From positions 1,472,001 to 1,536,000 of the forward strand of contig CM000154.2 of assembly GCA_000004695.1 (NCBI GenBank): a stretch of 64,000 nucleotides of DNA, in the 5' to 3' direction. The DNA comes from Dictyostelium discoideum. Its lineage: Eukaryota. Shown piece after piece: positions 1,382-45,466 of the stretch. The notes under the pieces were generated by a model that saw nothing but the letters and a program-made list of their open reading frames with translations, searched no databases and was not told the DNA's origin. A program made the position numbers and the translations under genes. How positions within the stretch are numbered: the stretch's first letter is position 1; every line of letters begins with the position of its first letter.

Positions 1382-1389
1382 ACCCATAA
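1382..1389 (+). promoter_or_regulatory. DUSE-like upstream element (ACCCATAA) about 70 nt upstream of the Class I RNA candidate
   Basis: The sequence ACCCATAA matches the Dictyostelium upstream sequence element consensus [AT]CCCA[CT]AA described upstream of ncRNA genes. It lies 72 nt 5' of the GTTGG start of the candidate RNA. Confidence 0.4.
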
Positions 1390-1460
1390 TTTTTTTTTTT
1401 TTAAAAGTTTGGTAGAATTTAAATTTAGTTTGTGATTATTTTAATGTGTTTAACAAATAA

Positions 1461-1519
1461 GTTGGCCTTACAGCAAATTCTCACAAATTTTTACTGATTA
1501 AAAAAAACCCCTTGTCAAC
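1461..1519 (+). ncRNA. Candidate Class I RNA (Dictyostelium-specific small ncRNA)
   Basis: GTTGG is followed directly by CCTTACAGCAA, the 11-nt Class I motif, at 1466-1476. About 40 nt downstream is an A-rich ...ACCCC block, and UCAAC at 1515-1519 can pair with the 5' GUUGG as a 5-bp terminal stem with one G-U wobble. The total length is about 59 nt. A T-run follows. Confidence 0.5.
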
Positions 1520-2053
1520 TGTCCACTTTTATTTTTTTTTTGTTTGTTGTCCTGAAACGGGGATAATTTTTTGTGAATGACAAATTATCCACTATTTAAT
1601 GTATCAGTGAAAAAAATTTAAAACAAGATCCAAGCAATTTTAAATTTCTAAACGATTTCTTTTGTAAAATTTACAGACTAAGAAAATTAACATGCAAAGC
1701 TTATTTTATTCTGGAATCTGTGCTTTCGAATATATTTACTTTGCCCAATTCATATAATTAACTACAATTTCAATATTAAATTTATCGATTTAATTCATTT
1801 AATTTAAAACATGGGTGTATTAAAAAAAAAAAAAAAAAAAAAAAATAATAATGCACTAAATTTTAAAATTCTTTATTTGCTAACTCAAACAAAAAAAAAA
1901 AAAAAAGAAAAACTACTTTACATTTTAAAATTAAAATTCATAAATAAAACTATTTCATTGTTTATTCCTTTAATGTATAAACACTGATTAATCAATATTA
2001 AAAAAAAAAAAAAAAAAAAAAAGTAAACCAACAAGTAAAAAAAAAAAGTACAA

Positions 2054-2121: not shown

Positions 2122-5100
2122 TTATTTATTTAAATCTTTTTTCAAAGATTCAAATAAAAATTCTTTTTGTTGAGTTGAAATAAAAGGTAAAAGATTTTGG
2201 AAACCATCAACGATTGATTCTGAATCTGATTGAACAAAATTTAAAATTTGATTGATAGCATATTGTTTTGAAAGATCAATAATCTTATCATTAATTATAT
2301 GAGAATTTGATTCGATTGTTGAAGAAATTAATTTATCGTTTTGATGGTAATCAACTGATTGATTGTTACCAAGGATTTGTTTAATCCAAGTTTCCAATAG
2401 ATTCAATTTTGATTGACGATTTAAACCTGGATGAGATTTATCGATTAATTTTAATTTATCCTCTTCAAATAATCTTCTCTTTATACGATCATAGAAGAAG
2501 GAACGAGCCGATTTCCATGGTACCATTTGTTTAATAACACCCTTTGCTTTCATTCTACCTGGAGTATCATGAAGATCAGCAAATTTAATGGCAATTTGTT
2601 GATAAATACCCAAGAGTTCTTTTTCTCTTTGTTGAATTTGAGATTTAATGGTCTTTTGAGATTGATCCAAACCATTGACACTAACACCAATTGGAATTGA
2701 TTTATCCCATTCAATAAGTTTTGGATCTAAACGATGCATAGTTTTAATGAGTTCTGGATCTCTATATTTAATTTCAGCGATACCATTTGGTTCCAATACA
2801 CCACCTCTACCTTCTTCACTACAATACATTTCCATCATATCCAAATTGATTGTTGAATCTAAAACTACCCAAGCACCACCACGTAATTCAGCAAATGGTG
2901 GAATATAGACCATAACTGGTTGTTTATAGTTTCTAAGGTTATCGACAATCATTGAACCAAATTTAAGGATTTCATCAAACATATCTCTCATACCACCACT
3001 AAAACCTCTCCAATTGGCCAAGATCATCAATGGTAACTCTTCACCATTATTGAAATCAGCGATTGCTTGAGCGGTCTTGAATGAAGAATCTGGATACCAA
3101 ACTTGGCCTGCTTGAGTATTAACTTGTTCATAAGAGAGTGGATTTGCTGGATCAGCAGGAATGATCTTTTCAACACTCTTTGTCTCGACTGCAATGATAC
3201 CAACTGGAATACCACCTAACCTAGCACGACCAGTGATTACAGTATTTGCCCAGCCAGCCAATGTTTCCATGAAACTATCCTTATCAAACATACCAGAAAT
3301 CCAATAGTTTGGATCGAGTTCCGATTGTAAACCTGCAATCAAATGTCTAGTATCACATTTACCATTGATTGAATTGGAAGGATCAAATTCGATATCTCTG
3401 TGTGGTGAATCGATTGGTGAAATAATTGGTACCATTTCACCACCACTCTTTGGTACAAATGATAACCATTGAAGTACATTTGTAATACCACGAAGTTCAT
3501 CATTGACAATGATATGAGAAACACCATTTGGATACATAATTTGTGAACCACCCAATTGTTGATTGGATTCATAGACTTCTTTACCCAAAACTTTATTCAA
3601 AGCTGAAGCACCAGTTAAAATGATTGGAGCATCATTTTGAATGGTTCTTTGACCCAATCTAACTAGGTATGCACCAATACCAACTGAACGACCTGATACG
3701 AGTGTAATTGTAAAGATTTCATTGTAAGCTTGTGAGGTTTCACCAGCGATTAAACCTGACCAACTTAAATTTTCAACACCAATACCATTTTTTTGACCAA
3801 TGATATCATGAATGATCCATTTGTCTTTATCGGTAGTATCTTGATAAGCAATGACACTATCTTTTAATGCTTGATAATCGTTATTGGTTAAATAAAGGTT
3901 TTTAATACCTTTGGTTGGATCGGATGGAACGTTCCAAGTTACTTTAAATTTACTCTTAATTTCATCGGCTAAACCAATTCTAGCACCAGAATTTGAAGAT
4001 AAATAAATTCTTGGTATTTTTTCTTTTCTTGCCAATTCCGAAGCCAATTTAAATAACATATCTTCTTGTGGACCGAATGAACCAATTTGGTGAGTGATAT
4101 CATTAGCAATCACTATGGCCTGTCTACCTAATGGATATTCAGGAGTATAGAAAGTCATTCTCCAAGCTACCATACCAATATCATTGTAACCAATTGGACG
4201 ATAGGTTTCTTCAAGTTTTGGTTTACTCTCTTCTGGTAATTGATCCAATGGAATTGATGGTGGGAAATCAGTATTGATAGTAGATGGTAGAATCAATTCA
4301 ACACTTTCTAAAACACCACGAGATGATGGATAAACCTTGACAGGATTTGTTTTATTTGATTCCATAAATTCCATCCAAATGTTTTGCATTGCCTCTCTAA
4401 AGAGATCAGGATAATCATAACAATAGGTTGTATCTAAACGTTGAGCTTTAAATCTATTTCTTTGAACAGCATCCATAATTGGGTAAGGTGTATCAACTGG
4501 TAAACCTTCCCAACTACCTTTTGAACTACCAGGTACAACTGCGAAAACCATTTGACCAATTGAATTTTGTTGTTCATAATAGCATTGAACTTGGAAAGCA
4601 TAACCAGTTGGGTTTTGTACAAAGAAACGAACTGGAATTAAACCATCACCTTTTCTAATACGACCTCTAACCTCTACACGACCAACTCTAAGTTTCCAAA
4701 GTCTTTTACCTAAACGATCACCAATCTCTTGAACTACATAACCAATCATTTTCTCATCAAACATTACCTCTGGCATTACATTTAAAAATATTGAATGATT
4801 TTGTGCTTTTTCATACTTTTTATTTGACATTGCAATCTCTAATGATTCAATTGACTCTGAGAGTAGAGTTTCAATTTGTGATAATAAAATATCAACTTTA
4901 ATCTCATTGGAATGACCATATAGATCTGAATAACGAATAACTGAACGTACAAAGAAACTACGATCAGCATCCGGATCAGTTTCTTTCTTACCTTTCTCTT
5001 GAGCATAGTAGAGATGAATTCTTTGACTAGTGGTTGGAACGTGAGTTATATCGAAATTTGATAATTTTCTAACCTCTAAATGATAGGCCATAGCTGGTTC

Positions 5101-8100
5101 AATATGTCTAAAGATTGGATCCTCCATATACATATGACGTTCTCTAAAAGTGAAATATTTCAATGGTTTACCTTCATCACCACCACAACAAATAAATGTT
5201 ATACGACGAATACGTGCAATTGACAACTCTTTAATATAACCCTTTAATATTGATTGGAATGAAGAGATAGCTTGATTCTCTTGTGAGATTGATTCTGGAT
5301 AGATTGAAATGATAACACTAAGAATATCTGTACTTTCATTTGGTGAGAGGGATAATTGAGATTTCTTATTATTCTCTTCATTGTAGCGTGTTAAAATCAA
5401 TGGTAATTTCTCTTCAAATTTCTTTTCATTTTCAAAGAATACCATCATACCATAACGAAGTTTTGTTTGATCTTCCATTGCAGTTAATGAGTCAGTTGAA
5501 TCAGTTCTTAACATTGATAAACCATTAAAAATTGACATTGATGGTCTTGGTGAAATTTGGAAACCACTACCACCACTACTACCACCACTACTACTAATAG
5601 ATCTTATTAATGGTGAACCATAAGTTGGTGAGCCACTATTACTACCACCAAGATTTGATTGTTGTGGTAAATTAATATAGAAATGCCATTCAATGAATGA
5701 AAATCCACTTGATCCTTCATCATTTGATAGTGTAACTTTAGTATCTTCAACATAATAGGAACGATAACTATGACGTACATAAACTTCCATTGCTAATTTA
5801 CGAATATCATCATCATTATTTGATTCATTGAAAAACATTGGTATTAAAATATCACTAATTTCATTTGTTTGTTTTGATAATTTTGAAATTTTTTCATCCT
5901 TATTATCTTGAACTTTTTCATCAACTTGTTGTTGTTGTTCATTGTTTACATTTAAAATTGATTTTAATGAATTAATTAAATCATTTGATCTTTGTTTATT
6001 TGAAGGTAATTGAGAATGAACCATGATATGTTTAGCTTTTAAAGAGATTTCCATACAATTACCACCAAGTGATGATAATTTTTTAAATTGTTCAACGAAA
6101 TCACAAACTAAACCTTGTTCTTGAATTTTATTTAGTAATAATAAAATGAATTTATATTTTTTAGATTGTGGATGTAATGATTGAGCGATATCAACAACCT
6201 TTGAAATATTATCTTTATAGGTAGGTCTAATTGATTTTAAAACTGTTTGAATATTTTTATTTTGTAAATTAGTTTCAATTTGAATGAATTCTTCTAAATA
6301 ATTTTTAAAGATATTAATCGCAGCGAATGAAACACCATCATTATATTTCTCTGCTAATAAAATGATTGGTTTAATTAATAATTGAATTGCAATTGATAAT
6401 TGTTCATTCTCTAATAATAATTTATTTAAATATAATGAAATTGATAATTGTAAATTTTTTGAATTAAATAATTCACTATCATCTTCATCGTCGTCGTCAT
6501 TATTAAATTCAAATTTATTTAATTCATCATTAATTAATTTAAATAATGATTGTGGTATTCTTGACTGAACAATTGATAATTGTTCTTTAAATTCAAATAA
6601 TGGTAATTTTTGATTTGATAATTGTTTAATTGTATCATTTAAAAGTTGATTTAAATCATTTGATTCATAACCACATAAAACATTTGAAATTTTACCAAGA
6701 GTATAATTTAAGAGTTGATGTGGTTTATTACCAATTAGAGTTGGTGGTGACATTTTTGTAAGGGAACCAGTGAAAACGGTTGATTTTTGAATTGATGATT
6801 GGTCTGATAATTCCAAGTTAGCAATGATTGCACCAGGTGCCATTACTGAACCTTCAGTGAGTACGAATTTAATGATACCTTTCTCTGGTACTAACAATGG
6901 CATATACATTTTCATAACTTCAATCTCTGCAAATGGAGTACCTTTTACAACTAATGAACCATCATCAACCAAATAACGTACTAATTTACCAGGTGATGAG
7001 GTTCTAAGTATACTTGGATCATATTCTTGAGAGAAAACACAAGTTTTAGAGTCAATCATTAATGATAACCCAATTACATCCTCTCTACCATAACAAACAT
7101 GTGTTGAACCATTCAATAGAATTAATAAACCACTATCGGATAACATTATAACACTTGAATCGATTGAGACTGCACTTTTATCATTCTTTAAACAAACTGA
7201 ATAATTGTTTATACCAGTTCTTGAGACTTCAAATTGATATTTAACATTATTATAGATCAATTCAATTGGTAGCGAATTATTTAATAACTCCAAACTTGGT
7301 AATTGACCATTTGATAATTGATTTGAGAATTCTTGAATCTTTGTTGAGAAAATGGTTGAAGCTTTATAGATTGCACCACATAATACAACGATCATTGTTT
7401 CTGGTTTTTTAGTTTGAATCTTTTCACTAATCAATTGATCTAACCAACCGGTATGAATATGGTTCTCTTTGAAATCTTTACTCTCCAATAAATGAATGAT
7501 ATATTCCACTGGGGTTCTAATATCACCACGAATTGAAATCTCTTTTAGACCCAAAATAATGGTTTTTCTAGCTTCTTCTCTTGTTGCACCATTGGCAAAG
7601 ATATGACCAAATTGTGAATCTGCATACTCGTGAAGACCACCTTTAGCACCAACACTGAAATAACCCCAAATATTTGGTGTACTTCTAAAGGTGAGTTCAT
7701 GGATTTGACCAGACGTTGGTTTAAAACCCTCATCAGGATTTTCACCTGTGATTCTAACTGCAATACAATGACCAGCTGGTGGATTACGTTTAGTGAAATC
7801 GTGTAAATCAATCATTGAATCCCCATAGAGATCATCACCAGTACGACCATACAATTTTCTAATATCCGGTATTCTATGTAATGGTATACCCATTGCAATT
7901 TGTAATTGAGTTGCTGGTAAATTTACACCAGTGATTTGTTCAGTCACTGGATGTTCAACTTGAAGACGTGGATTCAATTCCAAAAAGTAATATTCTCCCT
8001 CTGCAAATAAATACTCTACTGTACCAGCACCAACATAACCAACCTCTTTGACTAAACGTACGGCGGCACGTTCCATCTCTTCCCAAACTTGTGGGGTTGG

Positions 8101-8997
8101 TGCAATTGCTGGACCCTCTTCAATGATCTTTTGATGACGACGTTGTACTGAACAATCACGACCATTCAATGAGATGGCTTCACCATGACGATCGGCAACG
8201 ATTTGAACCTCTAAATGACGGGCATTCGATACTAACTTCATAAAGAAAATCGGTGAACCTGGTACTTCATTTTGAACCTGTCTAAACGATGACTCGAGAT
8301 CCTCCATTGAGGTCACCTTTCTAATACCTTTACCACCACCACCTTCACTTGCTTTAATCATTGCTGGGAAACCAACACGTTGAGCACATTCACGTGCCTC
8401 CTCAACTGAATTGATACATGCACGACCATAGATTTCCGATGGTACGCCATTACATTCGCTATAGTCCACTTTTAATCCACTACCACTCCATGGTACACAT
8501 GCGACACGTGCACTTTGTGCAACGATTGTCGATGCAATTTTATCACCTAAATCTGCCATAGCCTTGGCGGGTGGCCCAATGAAAACTATACCTGTCTCTG
8601 TTTTTGATAAAAGGTCTGGTAAACGTGGATTCTCTGATGCGTGTCCCCAACCGGCCCAAACAGCTTGTACACCAGCTCGTTCTGCAAAATCTACAATAAT
8701 ATCCACATTTGCATAGTTGTTATTATTCGATCCACCTGGTACCTGTAATATTTGGTCTGCCATTCTAATATATTCAGCGTTTGCCTTCATATCCTCTGGT
8801 GTTGCCATCACAACAAATTTAATTGCTCTTTCATTACCAAAGTTTGTATATGCCCATTTTCTAACTGATCTAATTGCTTTTACCGCTGCTATACCATTAT
8901 TTGCAATTAATATCTTTTCTATATTTTTATCACCTCCTAATTTTTTAATATATTCATTAATTTCAATCATTTCATCTGAAATAATTTTAAAAAACAA
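2122..8997 (-). CDS. accA: Acetyl-CoA carboxylase (biotin carboxylase + BCCP + carboxyltransferase), apparently one 6.9-kb exon
   Basis: The ORF encodes 2291 aa. The N-terminus has GGDKNIEKILIANNGIAAVKAIRSVRKWAY, the biotin carboxylase ATP-grasp. The biotinyl-lysine motif is EVMKMYMPL. The C-terminal carboxyltransferase has ...GGSQIMYPNGVSHIIV... The whole length aligns with eukaryotic ACC1. Confidence 0.9.
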   Translation of the reverse strand: MFFKIISDEMIEINEYIKKLGGDKNIEKILIANNGIAAVKAIRSVRKWAYTNFGNERAIKFVVMATPEDMKANAEYIRMADQILQVPGGSNNNNYANVDIIVDFAERAGVQAVWAGWGHASENPRLPDLLSKTETGIVFIGPPAKAMADLGDKIASTIVAQSARVACVPWSGSGLKVDYSECNGVPSEIYGRACINSVEEARECAQRVGFPAMIKASEGGGGKGIRKVTSMEDLESSFRQVQNEVPGSPIFFMKLVSNARHLEVQIVADRHGEAISLNGRDCSVQRRHQKIIEEGPAIAPTPQVWEEMERAAVRLVKEVGYVGAGTVEYLFAEGEYYFLELNPRLQVEHPVTEQITGVNLPATQLQIAMGIPLHRIPDIRKLYGRTGDDLYGDSMIDLHDFTKRNPPAGHCIAVRITGENPDEGFKPTSGQIHELTFRSTPNIWGYFSVGAKGGLHEYADSQFGHIFANGATREEARKTIILGLKEISIRGDIRTPVEYIIHLLESKDFKENHIHTGWLDQLISEKIQTKKPETMIVVLCGAIYKASTIFSTKIQEFSNQLSNGQLPSLELLNNSLPIELIYNNVKYQFEVSRTGINNYSVCLKNDKSAVSIDSSVIMLSDSGLLILLNGSTHVCYGREDVIGLSLMIDSKTCVFSQEYDPSILRTSSPGKLVRYLVDDGSLVVKGTPFAEIEVMKMYMPLLVPEKGIIKFVLTEGSVMAPGAIIANLELSDQSSIQKSTVFTGSLTKMSPPTLIGNKPHQLLNYTLGKISNVLCGYESNDLNQLLNDTIKQLSNQKLPLFEFKEQLSIVQSRIPQSLFKLINDELNKFEFNNDDDDEDDSELFNSKNLQLSISLYLNKLLLENEQLSIAIQLLIKPIILLAEKYNDGVSFAAINIFKNYLEEFIQIETNLQNKNIQTVLKSIRPTYKDNISKVVDIAQSLHPQSKKYKFILLLLNKIQEQGLVCDFVEQFKKLSSLGGNCMEISLKAKHIMVHSQLPSNKQRSNDLINSLKSILNVNNEQQQQVDEKVQDNKDEKISKLSKQTNEISDILIPMFFNESNNDDDIRKLAMEVYVRHSYRSYYVEDTKVTLSNDEGSSGFSFIEWHFYINLPQQSNLGGSNSGSPTYGSPLIRSISSSGGSSGGSGFQISPRPSMSIFNGLSMLRTDSTDSLTAMEDQTKLRYGMMVFFENEKKFEEKLPLILTRYNEENNKKSQLSLSPNESTDILSVIISIYPESISQENQAISSFQSILKGYIKELSIARIRRITFICCGGDEGKPLKYFTFRERHMYMEDPIFRHIEPAMAYHLEVRKLSNFDITHVPTTSQRIHLYYAQEKGKKETDPDADRSFFVRSVIRYSDLYGHSNEIKVDILLSQIETLLSESIESLEIAMSNKKYEKAQNHSIFLNVMPEVMFDEKMIGYVVQEIGDRLGKRLWKLRVGRVEVRGRIRKGDGLIPVRFFVQNPTGYAFQVQCYYEQQNSIGQMVFAVVPGSSKGSWEGLPVDTPYPIMDAVQRNRFKAQRLDTTYCYDYPDLFREAMQNIWMEFMESNKTNPVKVYPSSRGVLESVELILPSTINTDFPPSIPLDQLPEESKPKLEETYRPIGYNDIGMVAWRMTFYTPEYPLGRQAIVIANDITHQIGSFGPQEDMLFKLASELARKEKIPRIYLSSNSGARIGLADEIKSKFKVTWNVPSDPTKGIKNLYLTNNDYQALKDSVIAYQDTTDKDKWIIHDIIGQKNGIGVENLSWSGLIAGETSQAYNEIFTITLVSGRSVGIGAYLVRLGQRTIQNDAPIILTGASALNKVLGKEVYESNQQLGGSQIMYPNGVSHIIVNDELRGITNVLQWLSFVPKSGGEMVPIISPIDSPHRDIEFDPSNSINGKCDTRHLIAGLQSELDPNYWISGMFDKDSFMETLAGWANTVITGRARLGGIPVGIIAVETKSVEKIIPADPANPLSYEQVNTQAGQVWYPDSSFKTAQAIADFNNGEELPLMILANWRGFSGGMRDMFDEILKFGSMIVDNLRNYKQPVMVYIPPFAELRGGAWVVLDSTINLDMMEMYCSEEGRGGVLEPNGIAEIKYRDPELIKTMHRLDPKLIEWDKSIPIGVSVNGLDQSQKTIKSQIQQREKELLGIYQQIAIKFADLHDTPGRMKAKGVIKQMVPWKSARSFFYDRIKRRLFEEDKLKLIDKSHPGLNRQSKLNLLETWIKQILGNNQSVDYHQNDKLISSTIESNSHIINDKIIDLSKQYAINQILNFVQSDSESIVDGFQNLLPFISTQQKEFLFESLKKDLNK

Positions 8998-43540: not shown

Positions 43541-43700
43541 CATATTAATTTCGGTAGGCATATTAATTTCAGCCTAAAATAGTTGGTCTGTGCATGCCAA
43601 AATTAATATGGCTGCTGAAATTAATATGGTAATTCTAGCAGACATAAGTCCCATGCCAAAACTATCATATTAATTTCAGCATCCATTATTAAAATTTTAT
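43541..43700. repeat. Cluster of a 14-nt palindromic motif, CATATTAATTTC(A/G)G and its reverse complement CTGAAATTAATATG
   Basis: ...ccatattaatttcggtaggcatattaatttcagcc...gccaaaattaatatggctgctgaaattaatatgg...tatcatattaatttcagc. There are five copies in 160 bp in alternating orientation. They lie next to the retroelement fragment. Confidence 0.5.
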
Positions 43701-45404: not shown

Positions 45405-45466
45405 TTTTTTTTAAAAAAGGGGTTTATTTTTAGACCAAAAATTTGATGAATTGCTGTAAGGTCGAC
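45405..45466 (-). ncRNA. Second Class I RNA motif occurrence, on the minus strand
   Basis: The plus strand reads ttgctgtaaggtcgac at 45451-45466, which on the minus strand is GTCGACCTTACAGCAA followed by ...AAATAAACCCC and then a T-run. This is the same architecture as the candidate at 1461-1519: a G-rich 5' end, the 11-nt motif, an A-rich spacer and ACCCC. I found no clean DUSE upstream and no obvious 3' stem partner. Confidence 0.3.

Follow-up and report, generated by a model that had tools for sequence, protein, structure and literature searches.

The genes for EF-2 and acetyl-CoA carboxylase (ACC) of Dictyostelium discoideum converge on a short non-coding interval. Is this interval home to a small RNA gene, and if so, which one? 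A preliminary description, made from the letters of the sequence, had proposed that a Class I RNA gene lies here, together with a DUSE (Dictyostelium upstream sequence element). We analysed the whole stretch of 64 kb in which the interval lies, called the window hereafter, whose G+C content is 23.8%. The flanking genes are those that had been described. The C-terminus of EF-2 (EFG_III, EFG_IV, EFG_C) is encoded on the + strand with its stop at 1138, and the ACC ORF of 2291 aa occupies 2122-8997 on the - strand. The spacer between the two stops (1138 and 2122) is 983 bp long. All ORFs in this spacer are of low complexity and at most 58 aa long, with no hidden coding gene among them. A protein search with the C-terminal 600 aa of ACC gave best matches of 56% identity in fungi and other eukaryotes, and no dictyostelid protein.

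The RNA gene is found at 1461-1521 of the window, on the + strand, or at 1461-1522 if the CUGU tail is counted. We assign it, with a probability of about 97%, to the D. discoideum Class I RNA gene DdR-31 (dictyBase r31, DDB_G0295607, chromosome 5). Judged from the match of both sequence and coordinates, this identity is effectively certain. Positions 1461-1521 are identical at 61/61 nt to DdR-31 in the curated FASTA file of Kjellin et al. 2021 (PMC7919456). In the dictyBase GFF file of the same supplement, r31 is annotated as class_I_RNA (AJ699392) on DDB0232432 (chromosome 5), at 1473461-1473521 of the + strand. These coordinates minus exactly 1,472,000 give 1461-1521 of the window, and taken together with those of r58, another Class I locus considered below, they place the window at 1,472,001-1,536,000 of chromosome 5 (DDB0232432). 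Sequence, strand, position, DUSE (ACCCATAA) and TGTG box (TAATGTG) are all the same in the DdR-31/r31 record and at the locus, and we found no difference between them.

The sources disagree by 2 nt on the start of the gene: Table S3 of PMC7919456 gives 1473459 and a length of 61, and the GFF and FASTA files give 1473461. This offset corresponds to the conserved AA ahead of the mature 5' G. DdR-31 was cloned in 2004 and has been annotated since Aspegren et al. 2004 (cited in PMC7919456), and it was re-validated by RNA-seq in 2021 (PMC7919456). A full-text literature search with the name 'DdR-31' returned no match, and the name was found in supplementary files only. The locus is already known, and it adds nothing new. 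Both the existing annotation and the TGTG box had been missed in the preliminary description.

Covariance models also recognize the locus. The Rfam model RF01414 (Dicty_Class_I_RNA) matches 1461-1521 (+) over its full length (model positions 1-56) with 48.8 bits, above its gathering score of 41.5. Since the RF01414 seed may contain DdR-31, we ran a leave-one-out test. A covariance model was built from 29 Class I RNAs in the curated D. discoideum set of the PMC7919456 supplement, the DdR-31 sequence being excluded, with the 6-bp terminal stem as its sole structure, and the whole window was scanned with filters off. This model matches the locus over its positions 1-58 with 62.0 bits (E about 1.3e-15). 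The second match in the window is r58, a local match of 29.6 bits that lacks the stem, and the best match outside Class I reaches 14 bits. For comparison, Table S2 of PMC7919456 lists a classifier score of 64.5 and a CM score of 46.1 for DdR-31. The Class I call thus passed the covariance-model check with either model. Permissive Rfam scans, run on the entire window and separately on the spacer, gave nothing credible besides DdR-31.

The defining parts of a Class I RNA can be read directly from the sequence. GTTGG occupies 1461-1465, CCTTACAGCAA follows at 1466-1476, and TCAAC is found at 1515-1519. The preliminary description had placed the 11-nt motif right after GTTGG, and these positions are correct. 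The conserved Class I motif, CCUUACAGCAA, is matched exactly from position 6 of the RNA (1466-1476, +), and the motif file of the authors has the same 11-nt motif under DdR-31 (PMC7919456). The exact 11-mer occurs twice in the 64 kb, in DdR-31 and in r58, against a chance expectation of about 0.46 when up to one mismatch is allowed. In DdR-31, it adjoins the 5' half of the terminal stem, as expected of Class I RNAs.

This stem joins the two ends of the RNA. Its 5' half, GUUGGC (1461-1466, +), pairs with the 3' half, GUCAAC (1514-1519, +), which is identified by the RF01414 match, the fold and the family alignment. The pairing of GUUGG with UCAAC had been proposed correctly, but the stem is one pair longer than described, with 6 bp, five of them Watson-Crick and one a G.U pair at stem position 5. 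At 22 °C, which is the growth temperature of the amoebae, the minimum-energy structure of the RNA has the 6-bp terminal stem, with -8.78 kcal/mol and a pair probability of 0.67. In the unconstrained fold at 37 °C the terminal stem is not used, and the energy is no better than that of shuffled sequences (z = -0.18); the structure with the terminal stem lies 0.5 kcal/mol above the minimum-energy fold at that temperature. Thermodynamics alone would not identify DdR-31. Nevertheless, the 22 °C and constrained folds make the stem the optimum at growth temperature, and the 37 °C result is therefore uninformative rather than contrary. The 22 °C fold is also the structure given by the authors for DdR-31 (PMC7919456).

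Comparison across the family supports the same stem. We used an alignment of 31 D. discoideum sequences, DdR-31 included. With the stem in register, 96.7% of the cells pair, and when the 3' partner is slid by 1-3 columns the proportion is at most 54%. Compensatory double changes are found in three of the six stem pairs, and no shuffle reached the covariation score of the stem. The stem is thus conserved in structure and not in sequence, which is characteristic of Class I RNAs, and both the 22 °C minimum-energy fold and the family covariation bear it out in DdR-31.

The ends of the RNA carry the conserved Class I termini. AA is found at 1459-1460, the 5' G at 1461 and CTGT at 1519-1522; a 5' G after genomic AA and a 3' CUGU are the termini described for the class (PMC7919456, section 10). 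RNA-seq indicates that the CUGU tail belongs to the Class I RNA, which would extend DdR-31 to 1522 (PMC7919456). The RNA had been estimated at about 59 nt; this proved too short, the annotated length being 61 nt, or 62 nt with the CUGU tail. With 61-62 nt and an intergenic location, DdR-31 falls within the range of Class I RNAs, which are intergenic and about 42-65 nt long.

Upstream of the RNA, we found the two expected promoter elements. The DUSE ACCCATAA, a putative promoter element of DdR-31, lies at 1382-1389 (+), as read from the sequence and as listed in Tables S2 and S3 of PMC7919456, which give a duse_dist of 70. A DUSE-like box about 70 nt upstream had been noted beforehand, and we indeed count 71 nt between the element and the 5' G, or 79 nt from its start to the mature 5' end. 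The second element, the TGTG box TAATGTG (consensus AAATGTG), lies at 1442-1448 (+), 60 nt from the DUSE, start to start, and 12 nt before the 5' G. In Table S2 of PMC7919456, the TGTG box of DdR-31 is likewise TAATGTG, with a TGTG-box_dist of 11 and an inter_dist of 59. This layout is that of D. discoideum Class I genes in general, in which the DUSE is often >60 nt from the mature 5' end and the TGTG box (AAATGTG) follows about 60 nt past the DUSE, while the distance between this box and the RNA varies (PMC7919456). A spacing of about 60 nt from the DUSE down to the start or to the TGTG box, as is present here, is a distinctive feature of the class, and candidates without a correctly placed DUSE were found not to be expressed (PMC7919456).

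The DUSE at 1382-1389 is the sole + strand WCCCAYAA in the non-coding DNA of the window, and the bare 8-mer is not enriched, with three WCCCAYAA sites in the window versus 10.4 expected. The element is informative only through where it stands with respect to the TGTG box and the RNA. The composite of a DUSE, 49-55 nt and a TGTG box occurs once in the window, at DdR-31, and in 3% of whole-window dinucleotide shuffles.

Published data document the transcript. The small RNA of DdR-31, about 61-62 nt long, is very abundant (PMC7919456). The libraries of 0, 4 and 8 h contain 561,763-979,132 reads of it each, and its read coverage is validated (flag 1) (Table S2, PMC7919456). According to these counts, it ranks about third among the tabulated Class I RNAs; DdR-21 exceeds it in every library, and DdR-60 in those of 4 and 8 h (PMC7919456). 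AJ699392 is the cDNA accession for DdR-31 (dictyBase GFF, PMC7919456 supplement). The small transcript that the Class I proposal called for is thus on record.

Based on these features, a course of events for DdR-31 can be suggested. The promoter reads, in order, DUSE, 60 nt, TGTG box, 12 nt and 5' G, and transcription would depend on the DUSE. Downstream of the RNA, runs of four and ten T (TTTTATTTTTTTTTT, 1527-1541, +) form a probable RNA polymerase III (Pol III) termination signal. Pol III probably transcribes the gene and would stop in these T4 and T10 runs, 5-20 nt past the mature end, and the primary transcript would then be trimmed to CUGU. T-runs downstream of many Class I genes have been taken as a hint of Pol III, and DUSE elements occur at Pol II and Pol III genes alike (PMC7919456).

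A different start of transcription is possible though rather unlikely. The primary transcript might begin in the region of the TGTG box (about 1442-1448), perhaps as a snRNA-like product of Pol II, and be processed at its 5' end to G1461. The distances lend this some weight, as the DUSE is normally about 60 nt from the transcription start, and at DdR-31 it is the TGTG box that lies 60 nt away, the mature 5' end being at 79 nt. The authors of the RNA-seq study allow for two roles of the TGTG box, as a promoter element or as the place where a precursor starts, and the DUSE serves genes of both polymerases (PMC7919456). Nevertheless, D. discoideum Class I RNAs begin at G by RNA-seq, no Class I precursor is reported in the accessible parts of the text of that study (PMC7919456), and the T-runs directly downstream of DdR-31 fit Pol III.

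Once formed, the RNA would act as part of a ribonucleoprotein. Class I RNAs are mainly cytoplasmic, and DdR-21 binds the RRM protein Rnp1A (CIBP) directly; its knockout leads to more, smaller fruiting bodies (PMC7919456). By analogy with DdR-21, the stem and motif of DdR-31 may provide a platform for Rnp1A and partners in the cytoplasm; an association of DdR-31 itself with this protein is suggested by the motif and stem that the two RNAs have in common. The pooled Class I RNPs would modulate early multicellular development, and DdR-31 could be a major contributor to this pool.

For a second element of the spacer, a hairpin, the proposal had been that it could act like a terminator or represent another small RNA. 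The hairpin exists, with a perfect 9-bp inverted repeat (GGATAATTT/AAATTATCC) and a 12-nt loop as described, but its position had been given as 1553-1582, 8 nt off; the arms lie at 1561-1569 and 1582-1590, with no strand assigned, adjoining DdR-31. Its folding energy is -8.8 kcal/mol at 37 °C. From the mature 3' end to the hairpin there are 39 nt, and from the T10 run 20 nt; lying beyond both, the hairpin is outside the likely transcription unit.

To gauge how unusual such a structure is, we counted perfect 9-bp inverted repeats with at least two G/C per arm and a loop of 3-15 nt. The window contains 13 of them versus 5.0 +/- 2.7 in shuffles, about 2.6-fold more, and at least one falls within the 983-bp spacer in 8.5% of shuffles. 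If any perfect 9-bp stem is counted, the window has 163 versus 27.6 in dinucleotide shuffles, most of them AT-only. Short inverted repeats are strongly over-represented, and therefore isolated AT-rich hairpins carry little weight in the D. discoideum genome.

It is very unlikely that the hairpin is functional, be it as a terminator or 3'-processing structure of DdR-31 or as a second small RNA gene. A perfect stem of this stability so close to the mature 3' end, and the excess of such hairpins over shuffles, would speak for a function. Nevertheless, the hairpin sits beyond the T10 run, and chance alone produces a comparable one in this spacer at the frequency given above. None of the three WCCCAYAA sites of the window is placed, on either strand, to drive it. 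No Rfam family was assigned to it at E<=10, the sole overlap being a 20-bit chance match to a Francisella sRNA. With 9 bp, its stem is shorter than a Dicer substrate requires, compared with roughly 40 bp in the mir-7131 hairpin of the window, and r58, the only other Class I locus of the window, has no comparable downstream hairpin. Eukaryotic Pol III termination requires just a T-run and no hairpin. The inverted repeat is probably incidental and outside the DdR-31 gene; that it acts as a barrier to read-through or a signal for 3' processing, or gives a small transcript of its own, appears extremely doubtful.

The least tenable reading, that the locus is a chance match to the motif or a silent pseudogene copy, could appeal to decayed Class I copies such as r58, which keeps the motif and the TGTG box without a DUSE or a 3' stem half, but the defining Class I features are all intact at DdR-31, and it is refuted by the cDNA on record together with the roughly 0.56-0.98 million reads in each library (PMC7919456), so that its probability is practically nil.

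The r58 locus (DDB_G0295609) is the second annotated Class I locus of the window, at 45413-45466 on the - strand (chromosome 5 1517413-1517466), with an upstream region that extends to about 45557. Like DdR-31, it has the exact 11-mer, here after GTCGA, and a similar variable core and upstream sequence, and the two loci are 74% identical, the upstream part being included in this figure. Its TGTG box is AAATGTG, with the same 12-nt spacing as in r31. Unlike DdR-31, r58 is devoid of a DUSE, a poly-A run being present at that position, and the 3' half of the stem is replaced by a T6/A-run. Rfam made no call at r58, and the leave-one-out match to it is the local one without the stem mentioned above. 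The locus is absent from the curated and expressed lists of PMC7919456. It has the appearance of a degenerate copy that has kept its gene annotation.

At 43603-43692, some 1.7 kb away from r58, the window also contains a strong match to the mir-7131 microRNA precursor family (RF03716), with 85.5 bits on the + strand and 83.4 bits on the - strand (gathering score 74). This match is a long, near-perfect hairpin, which is presumably a known D. discoideum miRNA locus.

The value of the DdR-31 call is one of calibration: without any tools, a reader recognized a lineage-specific RNA family from the sequence, setting the 5' end of the RNA exactly and the stem to within 1 bp. The family-wide questions, namely the role of the Class I RNPs, the polymerase used and the nature of the TGTG box, are not advanced by this locus.

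Among known Class I RNAs, DdR-21 is the only one whose function has been studied. DdR-31 resembles it in family architecture, promoter layout, abundance and, as a class, developmental regulation. The two RNAs differ in their variable regions, and the knockout phenotype and direct binding of Rnp1A are known for DdR-21 only (PMC7919456). The closest D. discoideum paralogs of DdR-31 are DdR-33, DdR-28 and DdR-60, which have in common with it the variable-region core CAAAUUUUUACUGAUUAAAAAAA..CCCCU as well as the 11-nt motif and the terminal stem. Inspecting the alignment, we count about five positions at which DdR-33 differs from DdR-31. Stem position 5 is G in DdR-31 and A in the paralogs, giving a G.U instead of an A-U pair, and this G is common only to DdR-44 of D. 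discoideum and DfiR-9 of D. firmibasis. The promoters differ slightly as well, the DUSE of DdR-31 beginning with A and those of the paralogs with T, and the TGTG box being TAATGTG in DdR-31 and AAATGTG in the paralogs. DdR-31, DdR-33, DdR-28 and DdR-60 are all among the most highly expressed members of the family (PMC7919456).
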